DNA from: Candidatus Eiseniibacteriota bacterium
GTDB lineage: Bacteria > Orphanbacterota > Orphanbacteria > Orphanbacterales > Orphanbacteraceae
Length of the DNA: 64,000 nucleotides
Assembly (NCBI GenBank): GCA_024276995.1
Contig: JAJRWB010000050.1
Span: 80,359-144,358 of the forward strand
Direction of reading: 5' to 3'
Shown: positions 22,745-34,479 of the stretch, in pieces
Layout: each line of letters starts with the position of its first letter
Numbering within the stretch: position 1 is the first letter of the stretch
Notes under the pieces: model-generated
Database searches by the model: none
Seen by the model: the letters and a program-made list of their open reading frames with translations, nothing else
What the model was told of the DNA's origin: nothing
Translations under genes and position numbers: made by a program

Positions 22745-24301
22745 ATGCTCCAGCTCTACACGCTGGCGTACACGGCGGTCACCCGCATCGCCCTTCGTCT
22801 TTTCCGCCGCTACGACGCCGTGAGAGCGGTCTACCTCCGCCGCGGGGGCGCCAGAGGCGAGATCCTCCCGCTGGTGAGCGACATCGATTTCGCCCTGATC
22901 AGTGAGAACCTCGACGACGCCGACCGCAACGAACTTCTCGATGGCTACGAGGTCCTCGTGCGGCGAACCACTTTGCTCGACAAGACCCTCGAGATCTACG
23001 ACGAAGAACAGTTCTTCGACGCGTATCGCACGAACGATTACGCCCGCTACCGTTTCGCCGAGGGAAAGAAAACGTGGAAACTCCTCTACGGCCGTGACTA
23101 CGTCGCCGAGCTGCCCGACCTGCCGGACGAAGAGATGGCGGCCGGATACTATACCGAGATCAAGGTGTGGTGGGCGCTCTTCGCGTGGCGCTTCTTCCGG
23201 AGGGGAAAGTACTCCGGCGAACGGGTGACGGAAAACAACGCCTGCTTCAAGACGGTGAGCGAAATTCTCAAGATGGAGACGGCGCTGACGAGAGGGGAGT
23301 GGATCGTTTCGCGCGCCGAGGCGCTCGAACGGGCGGCGGAATTCCTGGATGGAGCCGAGCGCGAGTTCGTCCGGGCGCTGAGCCGGATCGCCGGGCACCG
23401 CTTCCGGCCCAGGCGAAACGGGGTGGTGGACGAGACGCTTTCCTTTCTTCTCGCGAGGCTCGATCGGCTCTACGGAGAACTGCGCTCCCACCCGATCGCC
23501 TCACCCCTGGACGAGCGCTCCCATCTGCTCGACTACGAGAGGAGCGAATCGCCGGGCGCGAAGGAAGAGGATCGCTTCTTCGAAAGGACACTGTCGTTCA
23601 TCGAAAAGAGGTGGGCGGTCCCCGTGCGGGCCGCCCGCGCCGTGCCGGGAGCATACTTCAACATCGACGAGCGTCTCCTCGTCCTCGAAATCGACGGCCA
23701 CAGGCCGCCGCCGGTGAGCGACCTCCTCGCGCTGAACGACCACCTTGCATCGGAGACGGCCCATGTGCGCGGGCGGATCCCGATTTTCCTGCGCATCGGG
23801 AACGCGGCTCTTCGCATCGACCCGGATGACCTGATGCGAAGCTGGCAATCGATCCTCTTTCCACCGTGCAACCCGGACGTTTTCGATCTTCTCGCCCGCG
23901 ACGACTCGCTCGTCGCCGGCCCGCCGTCACGCTCGCCGGCACCGCCGGCCGGTCCGGCGTGGACGCCGCTGGTGCGCCACTTCTTCGATGAAGAGGAGAT
24001 GCTCTTCTACGAACTTCTCCGCAACAAGGCGGTGTATAAATTGAACACGCTCGACTTCTGCCGCATTTTCTGGAAAACAGCGCAGCTCGTCGTGCTGAAC
24101 CGATCGGCTTCGGAGGGAACGATCCGCTACGCCATGACACCCGCGGCCATATCGAGGGAACTCTCCCGCATCGGCGCGGCGATACCGTCGAACCTCCTCG
24201 CCCTAGACCCGATCTATGCGGAGGCGATCTTTGGCGGGGAGAGCGACGTGGGGGAGTTCATTCCGCCGGCGCTCGACTACCTCATGGAGATCGAACGATG
24301 A
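22745..24301 (+). CDS. nucleotidyltransferase-domain protein (Pol-beta-like NTase fold) with large C-terminal domain
   Basis: Internal ATG (MLQLYTLAY..) of track ORF 22619..24301. NTase signature G-x-RG-[ED]-x-x-P-x-SDIDFAL (GGARGEILPLVSDIDFALIS). 519 aa. Confidence 0.6.
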   Translation: MLQLYTLAYTAVTRIALRLFRRYDAVRAVYLRRGGARGEILPLVSDIDFALISENLDDADRNELLDGYEVLVRRTTLLDKTLEIYDEEQFFDAYRTNDYARYRFAEGKKTWKLLYGRDYVAELPDLPDEEMAAGYYTEIKVWWALFAWRFFRRGKYSGERVTENNACFKTVSEILKMETALTRGEWIVSRAEALERAAEFLDGAEREFVRALSRIAGHRFRPRRNGVVDETLSFLLARLDRLYGELRSHPIASPLDERSHLLDYERSESPGAKEEDRFFERTLSFIEKRWAVPVRAARAVPGAYFNIDERLLVLEIDGHRPPPVSDLLALNDHLASETAHVRGRIPIFLRIGNAALRIDPDDLMRSWQSILFPPCNPDVFDLLARDDSLVAGPPSRSPAPPAGPAWTPLVRHFFDEEEMLFYELLRNKAVYKLNTLDFCRIFWKTAQLVVLNRSASEGTIRYAMTPAAISRELSRIGAAIPSNLLALDPIYAEAIFGGESDVGEFIPPALDYLMEIER

Positions 24302-25463
24302 ACGAGGAGAAACGTCTCACCACGTCGGTGGTGGTGGTCACGAAGGACCGCCCCCGCCTGCTCGGCGGACTCCTTCGTTCACTCGTCGCCCAGACGCTTC
24401 CTCCCGACGAAGTGCTGGTGGTGGACAACGGATCGTCGAGAAGCTACAATGAAGTGTTTCGCGAATTCGCGCCGCTTCTCCCGCTCCGAACGGTGGTGGA
24501 GACGAAGCCGGGCATTCCCGCGGCGAGAAACCGCGGCGTCCGGGAAGCGACGGGAGAGATCATCCTGTTCACCGACGATGATTGCGCCGCCGATCCGCGA
24601 TGGGTGGAATGTCTGGTGAAACCGTTCTACAGGAACCCCTATATCGGCGCCGTGGGCGGGGAGATCGATTCTGTCGAGAAGGCGGGCGGTATCGTGGAAG
24701 AGTTCTGCATTTCGGAAACTCTCATGCGAATGGGAAAACGGCCGGACGGCGGGCGATGATCATCGACATCTCGAAAAGCGGCTACCAGCGCGGCTACCTC
24801 CCCGGGAAGGGCATCGGTGTGTTCCACCCCTTCTTCGCCACGGCGAACGCGGCGTTCCGAAAGGAGGCGATCGAAAAGGCGGGCGGCTTCGACCCGAAGT
24901 GCTCCACCGGAGAGGATGTCGATCTTTCGATCCGTGTCGCCCGCGCCGGGTACGAGCTCTGGTTCGAACCGTCGGCACGAATCGTCCATTTCCACCGCTA
25001 TACGCTTAAAGGACTTCTCGTGCAGTGGTATCGGTACGGTCTCGGCCACGCGTATCTCTTCAAGAAGCATTCGCGCCGGAAGAGGCTCGAGTTCTACCGG
25101 TACGACCTCTCACCGAAGAACACCGACCCGTTCGGCATCGCCCGGGTGGCGCGCTTCCCCTTCCCCGTTCACGGTATGATCTTCCTGAGCAGCTTCCACT
25201 TCATGAACGCCGGCGCTCTCGCGGGCGTGGCCGCGTGGCGATTCCTCTCCCCCGCCGCGGCGGCCGTTCCTCTCGCCGTGGCGCTCATCGCCGGATGCTG
25301 GTACTTCTCGATCCGCTTCGACCGGCGCCGCCCGCTCAAATCGACGATCCTCTCCGCCTTGCGGTATGCGGCGGACGGCGCCTACGTACTCGGAGGATTC
25401 GCCGGCGGGATCCGCGAGAGGATGATCTACATCGAGGCGACACGCACCAGACGCCGCCCCTGA
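24298..25463 (+). pseudogene. GT2-family glycosyltransferase, apparent frameshift near 24735-24758
   Basis: ORF 24298..24759 carries the GT-A N-terminus (VVVVTKDRP..VLVVDNGSS..ILFTDDDCAADPRW). ORF 24582..25463, in another frame, carries the GT2 C-terminus (GKGIGVFHPFFATANAAFRKEAIEKAGGFDPKCSTGEDVDLSIRVARAGYEL) plus TM helices. Together they make one normal-length GT2. Confidence 0.5.
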
Positions 25464-25637
25464 CGGTTCGAAGGAAACCGCCATTGAAGGGCGCGTCTCT
25501 CCCGCACGAGCATTGCGTAACTCCTTCCATTATTCGTGTGATTGTGTTATGATCTTATCGCGTTGTCATACGCGCATGGCCGTCGCGCCCCCCCGGCTGT
25601 TCAGCACGATCCATGGAAAACATAAGGAGGATTTCTG

Positions 25638-26693
25638 ATGAAGTTCCGCGCCCTCGTGATCCTCGGCCTGATCGCCGTGACGGCGATTCCCGCCGCAGGA
25701 GCGCAACGGAAAGTGCTCGTCGAGTACTTTTCGAACGATACGTGACCGTACTGCGACGACATCGATCCGGGCATGGAGGCCCGTTTCGGATCGATGTACG
25801 CGGGGCAGGTTGCTCCGATCGAGTGGCACGTCAACTGGCCGAACTCCGCCGACCCGGCCTACCTGTATAATCCTACGGAGGTAGAGGACCGGCGAACTTG
25901 GTACGTCCCGGTGACCTACGTTCCCCAGTTCCGTTTCGACGGGAAGGATATCATCCAGTATAACGGCGTCGACACGACCGCATGGTTCGCCGATTTCGAA
26001 AGAGTGGTCGACAGCCTCCTGCTTCTTTCGAGTCCCATCGCGGTCGATCTCATCCACACGCGGGACGCCGATTCGGTGTATATCACCGTGGTGGTGACCG
26101 TCGAAAACGTACCGAGCGGATCGCTCAACCTCTTCGTAACCGCTTCCGAAGAATGGTATCGCGACTCCCCGTTCGGAAAGCAGTGGTACGTCTTCAGGGA
26201 TATGCTCACCGGCGCCACGGGCGACCCGATTTCGCTCACTACGCCGGGGGAGATCGTATCGATGCAGTACTCTTATCCGATCGATACGCTCTATCATCCC
26301 GCCAGGCTGATCACCACCGCCTGGGTGCAGAAGTCGAGCACCAAGAAGGTGCTCAACTCGGCGAGCGAACTCGTTCCTCTCTACACGGTGGGCGTGCCGG
26401 GGAGCGAGGTGCCGGTGCGGATCGTTCTCGATCAGAACACGCCGAACCCGTTCAACCCGACTACCTCTATCGGCTTCTCCCTCGACAGGGAAAGTCGCGT
26501 GCGGTTATCGGTCTACTCGCAGGCGGGACGGCTCGTCACGAACCTCGTGGACGGCCGGGTCACGCCCGGTTCCCACTCGGCGACGTGGAACGGCACGGAC
26601 CTCACCGGGAAGGCGGTGGGAAGCGGCGTCTACTACTACCGCCTCGACACGGACAAGAACTCTCTCACGGGGAAAATGATCCTCGTTCGCTGA
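25638..26693 (+). CDS. secreted thioredoxin-fold candidate selenoprotein (UxxC motif) with FlgD-Ig/T9SS-type C-terminal sorting domain
   Basis: ATG 25638 with a perfect AAGGAGG RBS 7 nt upstream gives MKFRALVILGLIAVTAIPAAGAQRKVLVEYFSNDT-[TGA 25743-25745]-PYCDDIDPG. This continues in frame into track ORF 25773..26693. The TGA sits where the first Cys of a Trx CxxC motif would be (VLVEYFSNDT-U-PYC), and a cis-Pro region (VTYVPQFRFDGKD) follows. The C-terminus is QNTPNPFNPTTSIGFSL..SGVYYYRLD..KMILVR. Confidence 0.7.
25761..25795 (+). promoter_or_regulatory. SECIS-like stem-loop 15 nt downstream of in-frame UGA
   Basis: AUCGAUCC-GGGC-[AUGGAG]-GCCC-guuuc-GGAUCGAU has an 8-bp lower stem, a 5-nt 3' bulge, a 4-bp upper stem and a 6-nt G-containing apical loop. 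Read directly from the sequence. Confidence 0.5.
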
Positions 26694-26729
26694 CGGCGGA
26701 GCGAACGTCCTGCACTATCGGCCTCCGGA

Positions 26730-26766
26730 GCCCGGGAATCGAACGATCCCGGGCTTTTTTCCTTTT
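26730..26766 (+). terminator. rho-independent terminator after selenoprotein paralog 1
   Basis: GCCCGGG-aatcgaacgat-CCCGGGC followed by TTTTTTCCTTTT. Confidence 0.65.
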
Positions 26767-26792
26767 CAAAACTGTTCACTCCGTTGTATAAT
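26765..26792 (+). promoter_or_regulatory. sigma70-like promoter for paralog 2 (TTCAAA-16 nt-TATAAT)
   Basis: -35 TTCAAA at 26765-26770, a 16-nt spacer, and a perfect -10 TATAAT at 26787-26792, about 70 nt upstream of ATG 26865. Confidence 0.45.
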
Positions 26793-26864
26793 GCATGTTG
26801 TGAATACCTGTGGAATTCACCCGCTCCCGAAAGCCGCAATAGACTCGAACAAAGGAGGAGTACG

Positions 26865-27941
26865 ATGACGAGACGGGCATGGATGGTCCCTGCTCTCCTG
26901 GCACTGCTGGCGCTTCCCGCCACTGCCGCCCAGCGGACGGGTGTTCTCTACGAGGACTTCACCAATGTAGGGTGACCCACGTGCGAAACGATTCGCGACA
27001 GCATGGACGCCATCCTGATGTCGCGTTTCCCGGGGCAGGTTGCTCCGGTACGATACCACGTGAACTGGCCCGACGGGACGGACCCGTATTACGCTTTCAA
27101 CCCGACACAGGTGAACGAGCGGAGAACGTATTACGACTCGACGGTCAACGGCGTGCCGATGATGTTCTTCGAGGGGCAGTATCTCTCCCAGGTGTGGGAC
27201 GGCTCCTTCGCGACCTACACCGACTGGTACAACTGGGTGCGCGCCACCCTCGACAGTCTGTACCTCATCCCAAGCCCCGTGAGGATCAATCTCCAACAGG
27301 TGAGGGACAACGATTCGGTCTATGTCGCCATCGACGTGATTTCCGAAGATACTCTCGGAAGCGCCCCGAACATTTTCGTCTGCTACGAAACGACGTGGGA
27401 CCGGTATCCCGGGAAGGGGAAGTATCGCTACGTCTTTAGGAGCATGGACCCGAACTCCGTCGGGGGAACTCTTCTCGGACTCACCTTACCGGGCGATTCG
27501 GTTCACGTCGAATACACGTATTACATGGATCCCGCGCTGAACAAGAGCCGCATGATGACCACAGTGTGGGTGGAAAGCAACAACGTCGGGGGCGGAGTGC
27601 TCAACTCGATCTCCGAGGAGGTGCCCGCCTACACGGTCGGTGTGCCCGGAGGCGCCGCACCGGTGCGGATCGTGCTCGATCAGAACGCGCCGAACCCGTT
27701 CAATCCGACTACGACGATCGGCTACTCCCTCGACAAGGAGAGCCTCGTGCGCCTTTCGGTCTATTCGCAGGCGGGACGGCTCGTTACGAATCTCGTGAAC
27801 AGCCACATGCCGGCCGGATCGTACTCCGTTCCCTGGAACGGCACCGACCTTTCCGGCAACCCCGTGGGGAGCGGCGTCTACTACTACCGCCTCGACGCGG
27901 AGAAGAGTTCGCTCACCAACAAGATGATCCTCATCCGGTAA
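26865..27941 (+). CDS. secreted thioredoxin-fold candidate selenoprotein paralog 2 (UxxC motif) with the same C-terminal sorting domain
   Basis: Track ORF 26784..26975 ends at TGA 26973-26975, and ORF 27003..27941 continues in the same frame. ATG 26865 with RBS AAAGGAGGA gives MTRRAWMVPALLALLALPATAAQRTGVLYEDFTNVG-[TGA]-PTCETIRDS.. The TGA aligns exactly with the TGA of paralog 1 (G-U-P-T-C vs T-U-P-Y-C). The C-terminal domain is about 85% nt-identical to paralog 1. Confidence 0.7.
26994..27025 (+). promoter_or_regulatory. SECIS-like stem-loop 18 nt downstream of in-frame UGA (paralog 2)
   Basis: CGCGACA-[GCAUGGACGCCAUCCUGA]-UGUCGCG is a 7-bp stem whose loop contains an AUGG/CCAU sub-helix. 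It lies at the same relative position as in paralog 1. Confidence 0.4.
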
Positions 27942-27998: not shown

Positions 27999-28078
27999 CC
28001 ACGGCCGTGCTGTATAATACGCCTGCCGGCGGGAAGAACCGGCGGTTTGAACCACACCGCTCACCCCGATGGAAGACG

Positions 28079-29425
28079 ATGAAGCTCATTTCATTCAGGG
28101 AGATTTTCCGCTTCTACGTTCCATTGCTGCTCACGTCGCAAATGATGACGCTCTCCGGACCGCTCATCAATGTAGCGGTCGGCCGTGCATCGGACCCGAA
28201 GCTCGATCTCGCCGCCTACTGGATCGGCTTTTCCATCCTCATGTTTATTGAAAGCCCCTGCCTGATCAGCCAGCAGGTGACGGCCACGCTGACCACGGGA
28301 TATCGTTCACTATTCAAAATTTTCTTCACGGCCCTCGCCGTCGGCATCTTGGCCGGGATCACCTCCGTCCTCGTCGCCGTCACACCGCTTGGCGACATCG
28401 TCTTCCTCAGGTTGATCCACACGACCGCCGAGGTGGCCGCTCGGGCGGGGCACGTGCTTCTGCTCCTCTCACCGCTTCCGCTGCTCATCGCCCTGCGCGG
28501 CGTGGGGAACGGGCTTGCCATACGGGAAAGGAAGACGGTGATCATCGCGCGGGCCACTGCGTTTCGCGTGCTCGTCCTCGCGTCGGTGGTCGGCGCGGTG
28601 GTGGCGCTCAACACCGGGTCGGGCGCCCTCGCCGGCGCGGCGGCACTCCTCACCGGGCTCGTGGTGGAGACGACGCTCGTTCTCATCGGCGTCATGCCGT
28701 TCGTCCGCCGATTCCGCGCCGCACGGGACGGCGACAACACCGACCTTTCGATCGCCGATATCTTCCGTGTCGCCATGCCCCTCGCCGTCGCCGCGTATGT
28801 GTGGACCGTCTCGAGACCGATCGTAAACGGCATCCTCGGACGCCTTCCCGATCCGGTGCTCGCCCAGGCGGGATTCGGCGTGGTGGCACCCGTGGTGCTC
28901 CTCACCTGTTCCCCCCTCTGGGCGCTGCAGAACGTGTCGCTCATCCTGGTGAAGACGAAAAGCGACCTCGCTCGGGTGCTCCGTTTCTCCGTGGTGCTGG
29001 CGGTTTTCTTCTCCATCGCCATCTTCATCGTTCTCATCACGCCGCTGCGCGACCTGGTGCTCGAGGGCGCATTCACCCTTTCACCGGAAATGGTCCGGGA
29101 GGTGACGCCCGCCCTCTTCCTGATCGTGCTCGAACCGTATTTTCTCGGGTGGCGCTCCATCGCACAGGGTCTCCTGATGAAAGCGAAGAGGACCGGCATC
29201 ATCGGATCGGTTTCGCTGATCAAGCTGGTGGTGATCCTGGCGGTGGGTATCTGGTTCGCCCTCTTCCGGCCCGGTGTGAACGGCACGGTGCTCGGTACGG
29301 CGCTTTTCATCGGCGGCGATTTGCTCGATGCCCTCTTTTGCGGATGGCAGGCGTCGAGGATCGTCCGGCGCGGGCCTCTCCTCGACGAACCGGCGACCGT
29401 GGGGGGCATGGCAATTCGCCCGTGA
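28079..29425 (+). CDS. polytopic membrane protein, MATE/MOP-superfamily-like transporter
   Basis: Internal ATG MKLISFREIFRFYVPLLLTSQMM.. About 12 predicted TM helices. The family assignment is tentative. Confidence 0.5.
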   Translation: MKLISFREIFRFYVPLLLTSQMMTLSGPLINVAVGRASDPKLDLAAYWIGFSILMFIESPCLISQQVTATLTTGYRSLFKIFFTALAVGILAGITSVLVAVTPLGDIVFLRLIHTTAEVAARAGHVLLLLSPLPLLIALRGVGNGLAIRERKTVIIARATAFRVLVLASVVGAVVALNTGSGALAGAAALLTGLVVETTLVLIGVMPFVRRFRAARDGDNTDLSIADIFRVAMPLAVAAYVWTVSRPIVNGILGRLPDPVLAQAGFGVVAPVVLLTCSPLWALQNVSLILVKTKSDLARVLRFSVVLAVFFSIAIFIVLITPLRDLVLEGAFTLSPEMVREVTPALFLIVLEPYFLGWRSIAQGLLMKAKRTGIIGSVSLIKLVVILAVGIWFALFRPGVNGTVLGTALFIGGDLLDALFCGWQASRIVRRGPLLDEPATVGGMAIRP

Positions 29426-29459
29426 GACACCGCCGAGGCCGTCGCTCTCGGCTCCACTC

Positions 29460-30476
29460 CTACCTCGCCCCCGCCGACCTCCTTCTCCTGCAAATAAGAA
29501 GGTAGAGGAAGAAGGGGCCGCCCAGCAACGCGGTGACGATCCCCACGGGCAGTTCGCTTCCCCCCACCACATTCCTTGCCACCGCGTCGCACGCCACGAG
29601 AAAGGGGCCGCCGAGAAGGAGCGAGCCGGCGATCAACTTGCCGTGACTCTCGCCGAGAAGGAGGCGGAGCACGTGGGGTACCACGAGGCCGACGAAACCG
29701 ATCGGCCCGCACGCCGCCACCGTCACGGCGGTGAGAATCGATGCGACGAAGTAGAGCTGCTTCCTCAGGTAATCTACAGGCACTCCCCTGCTCCTGGCGA
29801 TCTCCTCGCCGCATAGAAGAAGATCGAGTTCCCGCCTGTTGATCAGCAAGATGGCGACGCCGTAGAGAAGCGCGGGAAGGAGCGCCAGGGCGGGAGCGTA
29901 ACCGATGGTCTCCAGGTTTCCCATAAGCCAGCGGACCATGCGGAAGGTTTGGGTGAAGTCGGCGGCGTACTGGGCGAAAAGAAGCAGGGAAGAGAAGAAG
30001 TAGGAGAGCGCCACTCCGGCGAGGAGGAGATGAAGCGTGGAGAGTCCGCTCCCGGAGCGGGCGAGACGGTAGAGGATGATCACCACGAGAAACGCTCCAC
30101 CCAGGGCGAACAGGGGCGTCGCCTCGAAGCTCGACATCATCAGCCCTCCCGAAAGACCGGTGAGCACCGCCACGGAGACGCCGAACGCCGCGCCCGACGA
30201 TACGCCAAGGGTGAACGGCGTGGCGAGGGGATTGCGAAAGAGCGTCTGGAACGACATTCCGGCGAGAGAAAGCGCCGCGCCGGCGAACAGACCGAGGAGA
30301 AGACGGGGAACGCGCAGCGTCCAGAAGATGAACAGCCGCGTCGTGCTGCCGCCGCTGAACAGGTCTCCCGGGCCGATCGACTCGGGGCCGATGAACGGCG
30401 CCGCGAAAAGGACCGCCAGAAAGAAAAGAAAGAAGGCGGTGAGCGTCCTTCCCGGGCGGCGGACCGGCGCCATCAC
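29460..30476 (-). CDS. ABC transporter permease, FecCD/BtuC family (iron-siderophore/cobalamin type)
   Basis: Typical FecCD motifs (LLLGLFAGAALSLAGMSFQTLFRNPLATPFTLGVSSGAAFG.. and C-terminal GPIGFVGLVVPH). The start overlaps the ATPase stop. Confidence 0.85.
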   Translation of the reverse strand: MMAPVRRPGRTLTAFFLFFLAVLFAAPFIGPESIGPGDLFSGGSTTRLFIFWTLRVPRLLLGLFAGAALSLAGMSFQTLFRNPLATPFTLGVSSGAAFGVSVAVLTGLSGGLMMSSFEATPLFALGGAFLVVIILYRLARSGSGLSTLHLLLAGVALSYFFSSLLLFAQYAADFTQTFRMVRWLMGNLETIGYAPALALLPALLYGVAILLINRRELDLLLCGEEIARSRGVPVDYLRKQLYFVASILTAVTVAACGPIGFVGLVVPHVLRLLLGESHGKLIAGSLLLGGPFLVACDAVARNVVGGSELPVGIVTALLGGPFFLYLLICRRRRSAGAR

Positions 30477-31258
30477 CCTTCCTCCCCGCCGATACGCGGA
30501 AGCACCATGGGACGACCGCTGACCGGGTGCGCCGCGAGGAGGAATTCGCTGCCGTACACTTCGCGCAGCACGCCGGCGGTGGCCACTTCACCGGGGACGC
30601 CGTCGCTCACCACCCGCCCTTCACGCAGAGCGACGATCCGGTCGGCGCAGACGCTGGCGCGGTTGATGTCGTGGGTCACCACCAGGAGGGCGATCCCCCA
30701 CCGGCGGCGCGCCCCCTCCATGAGGCGGAAGATCTCGTCCTTCCCCGGGGGATCGAGGAAGGTGGTCGGTTCGTCGAGGAGGAGGATCGAGGCGTCCTGG
30801 GCGATCGCGGCGGCGAGGAGAACCTTCTGCTGCTCTCCGCCGCTCAGTGTGGCGAAGACCCGATCCGCCATCGCGTCGATACCGACCTCCTCCATCGCCG
30901 CGGCGGCGCGACGCCTGTCTTCTTCCGTCTGGCGGCCCCAGGTGGAGAGGCGGGGATAGCGCGCCTGGAGTACGATCTCGCCGGCGGTGAACGGAATGTC
31001 CGGCTCGCGCGCCTGCGGCACGTAAGCGGCGATTCGTGCCGCCGTACGCGCATCGAGATCGCTTCTATCCCTACCGTCGAGAAAGAGGGTCCCCCGCGGC
31101 GGAGGGAGCACGCCCGCGGCATGACGGAGAAGGGTCGACTTCCCGGCGCCGTTCGGGCCGATGAGGGCGACGAACTCACCCTTGCCGACCGACAGGGAGA
31201 CATGGTCCAAAATCAGCGCACCCGCCGGGGCGTACGAGAGGTTTCTCACGTCGAGCAT
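30473..31258 (-). CDS. ABC transporter ATP-binding protein (FepC/BtuD-like)
   Basis: Walker A GPNGAGKST, signature LSGGEQQKV, Walker B ILLLDEPT. Confidence 0.9.
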   Translation of the reverse strand: MLDVRNLSYAPAGALILDHVSLSVGKGEFVALIGPNGAGKSTLLRHAAGVLPPPRGTLFLDGRDRSDLDARTAARIAAYVPQAREPDIPFTAGEIVLQARYPRLSTWGRQTEEDRRRAAAAMEEVGIDAMADRVFATLSGGEQQKVLLAAAIAQDASILLLDEPTTFLDPPGKDEIFRLMEGARRRWGIALLVVTHDINRASVCADRIVALREGRVVSDGVPGEVATAGVLREVYGSEFLLAAHPVSGRPMVLPRIGGEEG

Positions 31259-31262
31259 CGGG

Positions 31263-32156
31263 TCACCTCACCTTTTCGAGGAGAGCGCCGATCTCGTCGA
31301 TCGCCCTTCCCACCCTCGGTCCCGGAACGAGGAGTTCGTCCCCCGTAAGGATGAATACACGTTTCGCCGCCGCCGCGTCCAGCCCGGGAAGGCGGGCCCA
31401 GTCGGCGAGACGCTCCGTCTCCTCCCCCGGTCGGATCGTGCGGCCCGGCTGCAGCTCGATGATCACCTCGGGATTCCGGTGGAGCACTTCCTCCACGCCG
31501 GGCGACGGGTAGCGACCGAGGGCGTCGCCGAAAGCGTTCTTTCCGCCGTTGAGACGGATCACCTCGTCGAGGTAGGTACCCGGACCGGCGACATAGAAGC
31601 CGGTGAGAGATCCGGCGACACGGTCGACCACGATCATCACGGTCCACTCCTTCACCGGCTTCCGGGCACGTGCCCGCTCCACGGCGCCACGGATCTTCCC
31701 GGCGAGCCGGCCGGCGGCCTCTTCCCGCCCGGTGGCGGCGCCGATCGCCTCGATGGCGCCGATCACGTCGTCCACCGTGTCGTTCGGCAGGGTGATCGTC
31801 GCGATCCCTCTCCTTTCGAGCTTCGCCGCCAGCGCCGCGTGGGCGGGGAGCATGATGGCGAGCGTCGGCTCGAGAGAGAACATTCTTTCCACGTCCGGGT
31901 TGAGGAGACCACCGATTCTCGGCTTCCTTGCCGCCTCCTCCGGATAGCGGCAGAAGTCGGTGACGCCGACGACCTCGGCACCGGCGCCGAGGGCGAAGAG
32001 CGTCTCGGTGATATTCGGCGCCAGAGAGAGGATCCTCATCGAACCGGCCGGCGGTGCCGGAGAACGCCCCTCCCCGTCATCGCCGCACGAAAGGAGCGGC
32101 GGAAGCACCACGAGCGCCGCGACGACGGCGGCCGACCGTAACTTGTTAAATATCAA
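31263..32156 (-). CDS. ABC transporter periplasmic substrate-binding lipoprotein (BtuF/FepB class)
   Basis: Binding-protein core (MRILSLAPNITETLFALGAGAEVVGVTDFC) preceded by a lipoprotein signal (AALVVLPPLLSCGDD). TTG start at 32156 is assumed; the track ORF extends to 32438 with an implausibly long leader. Confidence 0.7.
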   Translation of the reverse strand: MIFNKLRSAAVVAALVVLPPLLSCGDDGEGRSPAPPAGSMRILSLAPNITETLFALGAGAEVVGVTDFCRYPEEAARKPRIGGLLNPDVERMFSLEPTLAIMLPAHAALAAKLERRGIATITLPNDTVDDVIGAIEAIGAATGREEAAGRLAGKIRGAVERARARKPVKEWTVMIVVDRVAGSLTGFYVAGPGTYLDEVIRLNGGKNAFGDALGRYPSPGVEEVLHRNPEVIIELQPGRTIRPGEETERLADWARLPGLDAAAAKRVFILTGDELLVPGPRVGRAIDEIGALLEKVR

Positions 32157-32358
32157 CGAATTTAACCCTCGCTCGGCGCCGTGCCGGCGCGCAACAGGTT
32201 GAAATCGATTGCCGCAATACATTACATACTTTAGTATGGAGGATCGCTCCCGTAGCGTCCCGGCTCCGGGAACGATTGTAACGCCCTCCCCGGGGGGGCG
32301 CATCATCGAATCCCCTGCCCGCCCGATCCGGCGATCCGGGCGGGAAGTCTGAGGAACC

Positions 32359-34479
32359 GTGGGAAGAACGAGGACGAAGAACGGTACGGGGACGAAACCG
32401 GCCCTCGGGAAGTTGAGCCGCGAGCAATGCCTCGACATCTATAGGCTCATGTATACGTCGAGGATGATCGACGACACCGAGATCAGGCTGAAGCGGAAGA
32501 ACCAGATCTTCTTCCAGATCAGCAGCGCCGGACACGAGGCGGTCACCGTGATGGCGGGCCTCGCCCTCAGGCCGGGCTACGACTGGTTCCACACGTACTA
32601 CCGCGACCGAGGACTCTGCCTCGCCCTCGGCGTCACCCCCTACGAGATGTTTCTTTCATCGGTGGGTGCCGTCGACGATCCCGCCTCCGGCGGCAGGCAG
32701 ATGCCCTCCCACTGGGGCCACCGGCGGCTTAACATCGTCTCCGTTTCGAGTCCCACGGGCACGCAGGTGCTCCAGGCTGCGGGCATCGCCGAGGCGTGCC
32801 GCTATGGCCACGCCGCGGACGGGGTGGAGGGGGACTTCCCGCGCGACGCCGTGGTGCTCGCCTCTCTCGGCGACGGGACGACGAGCGAGGGAGAATTCTG
32901 GGAGGCGATGAACACGATCTGCAACAACCGCCTCCCGGTGCTCATCCTGGTGGAGGACAACGGATACGCCATTTCCACGCCCGTGAAGGAGCAGACCGCG
33001 GGGGGCGATATTTCCATGCTTTTCCGGAGCTATCCGAATCTTCTCCTTCATAAGGTCGACGGCTGCGACCCGGTGGCATGCCATGATGTCTTCGAGGAGG
33101 TGACCGCCCATATTCGCGCCGGCAGGGGTCCGGCACTGGTGCACGCGTCGGTGATCCGCCCCTACTCCCACTCGATGTCCGACGACCACCGGTCGTACAG
33201 GACGGAAGAGGAGATCGAAGCGGAATTGAAGCGCGACCCGATCCCCTCGTTCGCGCGGCGGATGGTGGACGCGTCCGTCGCCACCGAGGAGGAGCTTTCC
33301 GCCATCCGCGCAGCGGTGCACACCGAAATCGCCGAAGCGGAAGAACGGGCGGTGGCCGCTGTCAAGCCGGCTCCGGAGGATGCCCCCCTCTACCTATATT
33401 CCCCCGACGTCGACCCTTCGTCGGACCGGTTCGATACGGTGCCGGAGGACGGAGGGAGCCCGCTCTCCATGGTGGAGCTGATCAACCGCTGCCTCCGAGA
33501 CGAAATGAGCCGCGACCCTCGGATCGTCCTCTTCGGCCAAGATGTGGCCGACGCGAGCCGGGAAAGGGCGAAGGGAGATGTGAAGGGGAAGGGGGGGGTC
33601 TTCAAGGTCACCGCCGGACTCCAGAGAGAATTCGGCAAGGAGAGGGTCTTCAATTCGCCCCTCGCGGAAGCGAATATCGTCGGACGTGCGATCGGATGGG
33701 CGACGCGGGGCCTCAAACCGGTCGTAGAGATACAGTTTTTCGATTATATATGGCCGGCCTATATGCAGATTCGATGTGAAGCGGCGATGCTCAGATGGCG
33801 TTCACGGAATATGTGGAGCTGTCCGTTGGTGATTCGCGTACCGATCGGAGGATATCTCCAGGGAGGGGCGATCTACCACAGCCAGTCGGGCGCCGTGCTG
33901 ATGACCCACAACCCGGGGCTGCGGGTGGTGATGCCCTCGAATGCCCGAGACGCCAACGGCTTGCTCCGCACGGCGATACGGTGTGACGATCCGGTTGTTT
34001 TCCTGGAGCACAAACACATATACCGCCAGCCGTATGCGAAGTCAGCCTACCCGGGCCCCGACTACATGATCCCCTTCGGAAAAGCGAGAATCCATCGTGA
34101 GGGCGATGACGTGACGGTGGTGACCTATGGCGCCTTGGTAAGGCGGAGCGAGATGGCCGCCAGGAAGCTGGAGAAAGAAGGGATTTCGATCGAAATCATC
34201 GATCTCCGCTCACTCTCCCCCTGGGATACCGATACCGTCGCCCAATCGATCCGGAGGACGGGGAAGGTGATCGTCGCTTACGAGGACTGCCGCAGTTTCG
34301 GCTACGGCGCCGAGATCGCCGCCTGGATCGCGGACAACCTCTTCGAGGATCTTGACGCCCCTGTCAGCAGGGTCGCCGCCCTCGACACGCCGGTCGGCTA
34401 CTTCCCCACCCTCGAAGACGCCATCCTTCCCCAGATCGATGATATCGCCGGAGCGGCTCGAGAACTCCACCGGTTCTGA
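32359..34479 (+). CDS. 2-oxoacid dehydrogenase E1 component, fused alpha and beta subunits (TPP-dependent)
   Basis: The N-half has an E1-alpha TPP motif ([37 protein letters not shown]). The C-half is E1-beta/transketolase-like ([21 protein letters not shown]..). Single 706-aa ORF. Confidence 0.8.

Follow-up and report, generated by a model that had tools for sequence, protein, structure and literature searches.

A probable bacterial SECIS element in an overlooked UxxC selenoprotein gene of a Candidatus Eiseniibacteriota bacterium

Does the hairpin lying just behind an in-frame UGA codon in a thioredoxin-like gene of a Candidatus Eiseniibacteriota bacterium direct the insertion of selenocysteine (Sec), or does it follow merely from the peptide and the GC-rich composition of the nucleotides that form it? 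The gene, which we call gene A, occupies positions 25638–26693 on the forward strand of a 64,000-nucleotide window of contig JAJRWB010000050.1 (the window being the whole stretch of DNA analysed here); on translation it is an open reading frame (ORF) of 351 codons, ending in a TGA stop at 26691–26693 and containing an in-frame TGA at 25743–25745 as its codon 36, and the hairpin lies on the same strand at 25761–25795. A sequence-only reading of this DNA had proposed that the hairpin resembles a bacterial Sec insertion sequence (SECIS) element. We find it very probable that it is a genuine one, and that gene A is a UxxC selenoprotein gene (U denoting Sec) lacking proper annotation.

The sequence AAGGAGG lies at 25624–25630, with the ATG of gene A seven bases further on at 25638, and the frame from this codon reads MKFRALVILGLIAVTAIPAAGAQRKVLVEYFSNDT, TGA at 25743–25745, and PYCDDIDPGMEARFGSMYAGQVAP, with 315 further codons to the stop. 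The encoded protein begins with a signal peptide, which is followed by a thioredoxin-like domain bearing the motif T-U-P-Y-C, an immunoglobulin-like (Ig-like) domain, and a FlgD_ig/type IX secretion system (T9SS) C-terminal sorting domain; the UGA supplies the first position of UxxC and the partner cysteine codon, TGC, is at 25752–25754. Gene A has a tandem paralogue, gene B (26865–27941, forward strand), with the same architecture, the motif G-U-P-T-C, and 52% identity to gene A after the UGA. The N-termini of both, read from the sequence, are hydrophobic and end in AAGA/Q and ATAA/Q in genes A and B, respectively. Pfam FlgD_ig (PF13860) matches gene A with 33.5 bits and gene B with 36.2 bits (cutoff 27), Pfam Omp28 is also matched by gene A, and NCBIfam TIGR04183, the T9SS C-terminal domain, is matched with 29.3 and 27.4 bits, respectively (cutoff 23). 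With a C-terminal domain above cutoff and an N-terminal signal peptide, both products thus have the predicted features of T9SS cargo. Because such cargo needs a signal peptide, and one is encoded only from the upstream ATG, we favor the full-length reading of gene A; the Shine-Dalgarno sequence likewise precedes the upstream ATG only. The sole database copy of the gene A product found in a word-indexed protein search is a 306-residue form truncated at the methionine encoded at 25773.

Comparison with homologues shows how the UGA position behaves elsewhere. A profile search of 1.84 billion representatives returned 1375 homologues, and the full-length ones carry the motif ExFTNxxCxxC after the signal peptide, the UGA of gene A corresponding to its first cysteine. 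Many of the top matches start at a methionine ten codons past the UGA position, and in all eight of the truncated homologues for which DNA was fetched an upstream short ORF or open frame ends in a TGA 27 nucleotides (nt) before the called start; reading through that TGA restores both the signal peptide and ExFTNxxUxxC. In genome scans, a Ca. Eisenbacteria metagenome-assembled genome (MAG; L001) had a TGA form, whereas the form in a Zixibacteria MAG (L002) was TGC. A first scan of metagenome loci with a two-sequence alignment confirmed no relatives; metagenomes were also scanned with the degenerate DNA pattern ExFTNxx[TGA/TGC/TGT]xxC (starting E-x-F-T-N), and matches were kept if they scored against the family hidden Markov model. 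After removal of duplicates there are at least 20 distinct TGA forms (genes A and B and 18 others) and at least 33 cysteine forms. The UGA of gene A therefore aligns with TGA at at least 19 other distinct sites, gene B included, and with the cysteine codons TGC or TGT in L002, L012, L013, and about 30 metagenomic homologues; the TGA varies only to cysteine codons, and conservation continues straight across it (ExFTNxxUxxC).

The hairpin itself, AUCGAUCCGGGCAUGGAGGCCCGUUUCGGAUCGAU at 25761–25795, is separated from the UGA by a spacer of exactly 15 nt (25746–25760), and the sequence, frame, and spacing are as the sequence-only reading had described them. The 8-bp lower helix that it had drawn, AUCGAUCC/GGAUCGAU, is common to all low-energy structures. 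Above this helix the reading had placed a GGGC/GCCC helix with the loop AUGGAG (25773–25778) and a 5-nt GUUUC bulge, and this geometry corresponds to a valid suboptimal fold, which at −16.6 kcal/mol makes up about 5% of the ensemble, but not to the one of minimum free energy (MFE). The MFE fold of the 35-mer is stable, at −18.5 kcal/mol, and has a lower helix of 11 bp including G-U pairs (25761–25771 with 25785–25795), a bulged C at 25772, and an upper helix of 4 bp, AUGG/CCGU (25773–25776 with 25781–25784), closed by the tetraloop AGGC (25777–25780). Flanking pairs lengthen the helix to 25759–25797 and 25751–25803. Either conformer may be the functional one: AUGGAG is exposed at nt 31–36 in the first, as AUGGA is at that place in many homologues, and the MFE conformer agrees with gene B in the position of its loop.

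Several measures of stability point the same way. Against dinucleotide shuffles the 35-mer has a z of −2.9, and a 68-nt context folds at −34.9 kcal/mol with a z of −3.7. The 48-nt stretch after the UxxC codons ranks among the most stable 0.7% of all stretches of that length in the window, which is 63.5% GC, and in the top 0.4% of the stretches that follow any TGA triplet in it. Compared with synonymous recodings of its own peptide, using its own codon usage, gene A has a z of −2.4 to −2.5 (p ~0.02). There is no U-tract 3′ of the hairpin, and we therefore rejected the possibility that it is a transcription terminator.

The bacterial SECIS (bSECIS) model of Zhang and Gladyshev, summarised in PMC13188914, asks for an apical loop of 3–9 nt on an upper stem of 4–16 bp, a G at one or both of the first two loop positions (most often as G[G/U]), a distance of 16–37 nt from the UGA to this loop, and an MFE of −7.5 kcal/mol or lower. 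The MFE fold of gene A conforms to all four of the constraints summarised there, having the 4-nt loop AGGC on 4 bp, a G at loop position 2 followed by another G, a spacing of 31 nt, and an energy well within the limit; the alternative conformer also conforms in loop and stem size (6 nt on 4 bp) and in spacing (27 nt). The loop is 32 nt from the UGA in gene B and 25–29 nt in the homologues; that of gene A, at 31 nt, lies towards the far end of the summarised range. Other features expected of a SECIS element are also present, namely a stem-loop within the ORF behind a UGA, a Sec/Cys pair among homologues, and a covarying structure that is relaxed in the cysteine forms. Like the prototype from Escherichia coli fdhF, the gene A element is a stable hairpin within an ORF, behind a Sec UGA and with a small G-containing loop; it differs in that the primary sequence is unrelated and the lower helix is long, at 11–13 bp. 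The minimal SECIS of fdhF has a 5′ bulged U, four base pairs, and a GGUC tetraloop, and the MFE apex of gene A, with its 5′ bulged C, 4 bp, and AGGC, is very similar to it.

In the comparison of TGA and cysteine forms, six TGA sequences and the majority of the cysteine ones were drawn from the pattern scan, which is blind to the hairpin arms. A hairpin is present in each of the 20 distinct TGA forms, with an apical loop 25–32 nt past the UGA. We compared nt 13–60 after the codon with 400–1000 synonymous recodings of each sequence, using the codon usage of the gene concerned. The 20 TGA forms have a mean folding free energy of −16.6 kcal/mol and a mean z of −2.44, with negative values in every one, whereas the 33 cysteine forms have means of −9.2 kcal/mol and −0.04; the difference in z gives a Mann-Whitney p of 8e-9, although the sequences compared are mutually related and p-values of this kind overstate their independence. 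Excess RNA stability is a property of the UGA forms that the cysteine forms lack. Among close cysteine relatives, L002 has no stem, and the excess stability of L081 is not significant.

The structure also covaries. In an alignment of the 18 hairpins from outside the window (A4), made codon by codon and free of gaps, 80% of cells are paired in a 12-bp structure, compared with 28–46% when the partners are slid by 1–3 columns; seven of the 12 pairs show double-sided changes (21 cells), the covariation score was reached in none of 500 column shuffles, and RNAalifold independently yields the same lower helix. A hairpin is found at the same place in all 18 of the other distinct UGA homologues, with compensatory changes in the stem; with the stable fold described above, both of the checks that the sequence-only reading had proposed turned out in its favor. 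RNAalifold also pairs columns 9–12 of a further alignment (A3) with columns 63–66 (in the window, 25751–25754 with about 25805–25808), so that C-UGC of the cysteine codon pairs with GCAG in the conserved Gly-Gln codons; two of the four pairs in this outer helix are invariant and two vary almost only on one side, and we attach little weight to it either way.

The family consensus is RUCAARGAY ... AUGGA ... AUCUUUGAY, encoding I/V-K-D ... M-D/E ... I-F-D, and in the homologues of A4 the arms are reverse-complementary codon triplets (AUC-AAR-GAY and AUC-UUU-GAY) that specify the peptide I-K-D ... I-F-D. An AlphaFold model of the full-length cysteine homologue P0010 (predicted local distance difference test score, pLDDT, 92.7) has a thioredoxin fold followed by two beta-sandwich domains, with CxxC placed after strand beta-1 and before the N-terminus of helix alpha-1; since CxxC stands at the start of this helix, the hairpin falls within the codons for helix alpha-1. 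We note that I-K-D ... I-F-D has the look of a protein-level footprint of the RNA helix in helix alpha-1 of the thioredoxin domain.

The family hairpins, which come from Ca. Eisenbacteria MAGs and metagenomes, and those of genes A and B share their starting codon, the sixth after U (Ile/Val), as well as the helix alpha-1 codons that they overlap, and would have the same role; AUG-GA(G) at nt 31–36 is also shared. They differ in their dimensions, as the family hairpin is 30 nt long with its loop 25–29 nt from the UGA, whereas that of gene A (AUCGAUCCGGG/UUCGGAUCGAU) is 35 nt long with its loop at 31, and that of gene B (CGCGACA/UGUCGCG) is 33 nt long with its loop at 32. In genes A and B the start is kept, at codons 6–7, and the 3′ arm ends 5–6 nt further downstream than in the homologues. 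The peptide at the gene A helix, DIDPGMEARFGS, agrees with the family consensus I/V-K-D-x-M-D/E-x-I-F-D only at I, M, and F; the earlier statement that the helix overlaps codons for conserved residues holds for these three and not for the others, and the gene A peptide has diverged at the helix while a hairpin was kept.

In gene B the in-frame UGA, read as a Sec codon, is at 26973–26975 and the partner cysteine codon at 26982–26984. A hairpin at 26994–27026 on the forward strand has a lower helix CGCGACA/UGUCGCG, a short interrupted upper helix, and the loop CGCCA, which lies 32 nt past the UGA; it folds at −14.9 kcal/mol, with a z of −2.8 against shuffles and −2.5 against synonymous recodings. 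On these sequence grounds it is predicted to be a second SECIS. Its sequence is unrelated to that of the gene A hairpin. Tandem selenoprotein gene copies also occur in L006, which has two, and in L009, which has three.

Some observations weigh against a SECIS in gene A, in addition to the mutual relatedness of the sequences already mentioned. The loop AUGGAG of the sequence-only reading has its Gs at positions 3 and 4, and so fails the loop-G rule as summarised in PMC13188914. Run over the window at E <= 10, a covariance model of the 18 homologous hairpins (R1) found neither 25761–25795 nor 26994–27026, which indicates that place and shape are conserved rather than sequence. Rfam gave no match at gathering score in the window and no relevant one at E <= 10 in 25600–27200, a negative that counts only if Rfam holds a model suited to SECIS elements within bacterial ORFs. 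ARAGORN reported neither a tRNA-Sec nor any other tRNA in the 64-kb window, and a Pfam scan limited to ten neighbouring ORFs found none of selA, selB, and selD; on our reading selA, selB, selC, and selD would lie elsewhere in the genome, and the capacity of the organism to decode Sec is a prediction. The stretch in gene B is unexceptional against the window background, falling in the top 16%. Finally, the close cysteine homologues L012 and L013 retain a weakened hairpin, so that part of the complementarity comes with the peptide.

These last two points, together with the self-complementarity of the family peptide at the codon level (AUCAAAGAU versus AUCUUUGAU), are what would be expected if the UGA encodes Sec while the hairpin is only a by-product of the peptide and the GC-rich composition, the recoding signal being elsewhere or unneeded. 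This seems improbable to us, because all 20 TGA forms are more stable than their synonymous recodings and the 33 cysteine forms are not, because genes A and B have an altered peptide and yet retain a hairpin, and because the homologues show compensatory changes in the stem. The L012 sequence (L012:1534, a cysteine form in a Latescibacterota MAG, with the same 66 nt in L015) encodes the peptide NDIKDSVDKIFGEFAG, which is nearly that of the Sec forms L001:2992 and L125, and still has their hairpin in a degraded form (z −1.8); it may represent a recent replacement of Sec by cysteine.

Public gene calls divide these genes at the UGA, with an ORF of 31–43 residues followed by one of 302–319 residues, which is how they would look if the UGA were a true stop, whether in a pseudogene, through an assembly error, or between a 35-residue leader and an independent 306-residue ORF, with the hairpin incidental or an attenuator. 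We regard this as very unlikely. Twenty distinct sequences, drawn from many samples, have TGA at this same codon, which also led us to reject a pseudogene or a sequencing error at this position, and it is replaced only by cysteine codons, with conservation unbroken on either side. No Shine-Dalgarno sequence precedes the downstream ATG, a protein started there would be without the signal peptide that T9SS cargo requires, and the hairpin has no U-tract behind it.

We give equally little credence to a different role for the hairpin in the mRNA, such as ribosome pausing for a read-through independent of SelB, or stabilisation of the message. It is true that binding of SelB to the hairpin is a prediction and that the window hairpins depart from the family sequence consensus, as the R1 search shows; however, position, size, loop Gs, and spacing all agree with the SelB-dependent bSECIS model, and a strict tie to UGA at the position of a redox cysteine is the signature of Sec decoding. 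General use of UGA as a sense codon in this organism (genetic code 4 or 25), which would need no signal, was rejected as extremely unlikely, because nine of the 16 genes in the window that are confidently called, being long or supported by Pfam, end in TGA, gene A among them, and a scan of the window for further in-frame TGAs between coding segments of high third-position GC content (GC3) gave no other convincing selenoprotein gene.

If the hairpin is a SECIS, as we favor, translation of gene A would begin at 25638, where a strong Shine-Dalgarno sequence precedes the ATG, and at the UGA Sec would be delivered by SelB, bound to the hairpin, in competition with release factor 2. The product would be a secreted protein of 351 residues, in which the UxxC redox motif stands where helix alpha-1 of the thioredoxin fold begins, with Sec as its N-terminal, attacking residue. 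The succession of a thioredoxin domain and Ig-like and T9SS C-terminal domains would be the architecture of Porphyromonas gingivalis HBP35. Being embedded in the codons for helix alpha-1, the hairpin would place RNA and protein under mutual constraint, and gene B would use the same mechanism with a hairpin of its own.

HBP35 is a T9SS cargo protein with a thioredoxin motif and a C-terminal domain (PMC2907840), and it is the best match in the Protein Data Bank (PDB) in a fold search with the P0010 model (5y1a, all three domains, E 3e-12, template modelling (TM) scores 0.52/0.59); a sequence search of the PDB gave no match. The structural likeness extends over three domains, but HBP35 has cysteine instead of Sec and the sequence identity is 13%. 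We found no paper in the literature searched that links HBP35, Omp28, or Eisenbacteria to selenoproteins.

Among known selenoprotein families, NF045500, the 'Omp28-related selenoprotein', is the top NCBIfam match of gene A (residues 19–244, 41.5 bits, E 1e-10). NF045500 is the 'hypothetical protein GOS_C' of the Global Ocean Sampling (GOS) metagenome, with UxxC in a thioredoxin-like fold (PMC13188914; PMC2398784). Genes A and B resemble it in having UxxC (U-P-Y-C and U-P-T-C), a thioredoxin-like fold, and an Omp28-related domain. Neither reaches the cutoff of 200 bits, gene B scoring 32.4, and the other members of their Sec clade score 22–38 bits (maximum 37.6) or give no match; since these scores are far below the cutoff, we take the clade to be a subfamily separate from NF045500. 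It differs further in the FlgD_ig/T9SS C-terminal domain and in its occurrence in candidate phyla of the Fibrobacteres-Chlorobi-Bacteroidetes (FCB) group rather than in marine plankton. By sequence comparison, genes A and B appear to belong to a separate Sec-containing branch of the Omp28/HBP35-like superfamily.

A broader proposal, which we advance tentatively and with rather less than even confidence, is that this clade comprises uncatalogued HBP35/Omp28-like thioredoxin-fold selenoproteins, exported by the T9SS to the surface of Eisenbacteria-like FCB phyla, often encoded in tandem, and carrying a lineage-typical SECIS whose arms encode a palindromic helix alpha-1 peptide (I-K-D ... I-F-D). 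If so, genes A and B would show that the peptide can be rewritten provided that a hairpin loop about 30 nt from the UGA persists.

The mechanism is a textbook one and the kind of element is known, to which the gene A hairpin adds a member. The reading would correct the annotation of genes A and B and of at least 12 public homologues, all called as truncated 'FlgD Ig-like domain' proteins. Two such GenBank records, MFH1278158.1 (P0016, from L011) and that of gene A in the window (P0001), carry the label 'FlgD immunoglobulin-like domain containing' for products of 302–306 residues whose first residue is the methionine past the UGA, and the signal peptide and UxxC active site are absent from both. 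The selenoproteome of the FCB candidate phyla, which are poorly known, would gain a clade of secreted, probably cell-surface UxxC selenoproteins, implying that these organisms use selenium, and the helix would be a natural example of RNA structure and protein sequence constrained together in the active-site helix of a thioredoxin fold.

Between genes A and B there are two further features of the forward strand. An intrinsic-terminator-like hairpin (GGAGCCCGGGA...UCCCGGGCUUUUUU) lies at 26727–26763, past the gene A stop, and folds at −21 kcal/mol with a z of −3.4; a consensus terminator scan with a loop limit of 3–8 nt missed it, probably because the uninterrupted stem GCCCGGGA/UCCCGGGC encloses 9 nt. 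Upstream of gene B, at 26763–26792, is a sigma-70-like promoter match (TTCAAA/TTTTCA ... TATAAT, 10/12), put forward as a match to the consensus only.

The products of the ten ORFs covered by the Pfam scan are glycosyltransferases, an ANKH-like membrane protein, and the FecCD, ABC, and binding-protein components of a transporter. Upstream of gene A a family-2 glycosyltransferase is split on the forward strand into two overlapping ORFs in different frames, 24298–24759 (PF00535, N-terminal) and 24582–25463 (PF13632, C-terminal), which may reflect a frameshift, a pseudogene, or a sequencing error. A GC-rich palindrome at 29350–29389 (GGCGUCGAGGA...UCCUCGACG), in the 3′ end of the ANKH-like gene and just short of the FecCD gene that converges on it, is the top R1 match on both strands; it is unrelated to SECIS and may be a bidirectional terminator. 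The order of selenoprotein gene, ANKH-like gene, and opposite-strand FecCD permease and ABC ATPase genes (28007–32438 in the window) is kept at 1209–4042 in L003, the closest relative, and the window has in addition a Peripla_BP_2 binding protein. HBP35 binds hemin, and by analogy a link of the selenoprotein genes to heme or iron uptake is conceivable. Homologous genes elsewhere have neighbours of thiol-redox type, with a DsbA/Thioredoxin_4 protein in L005 (18–881) and an AhpC/Redoxin protein in L007 (1796–2353).

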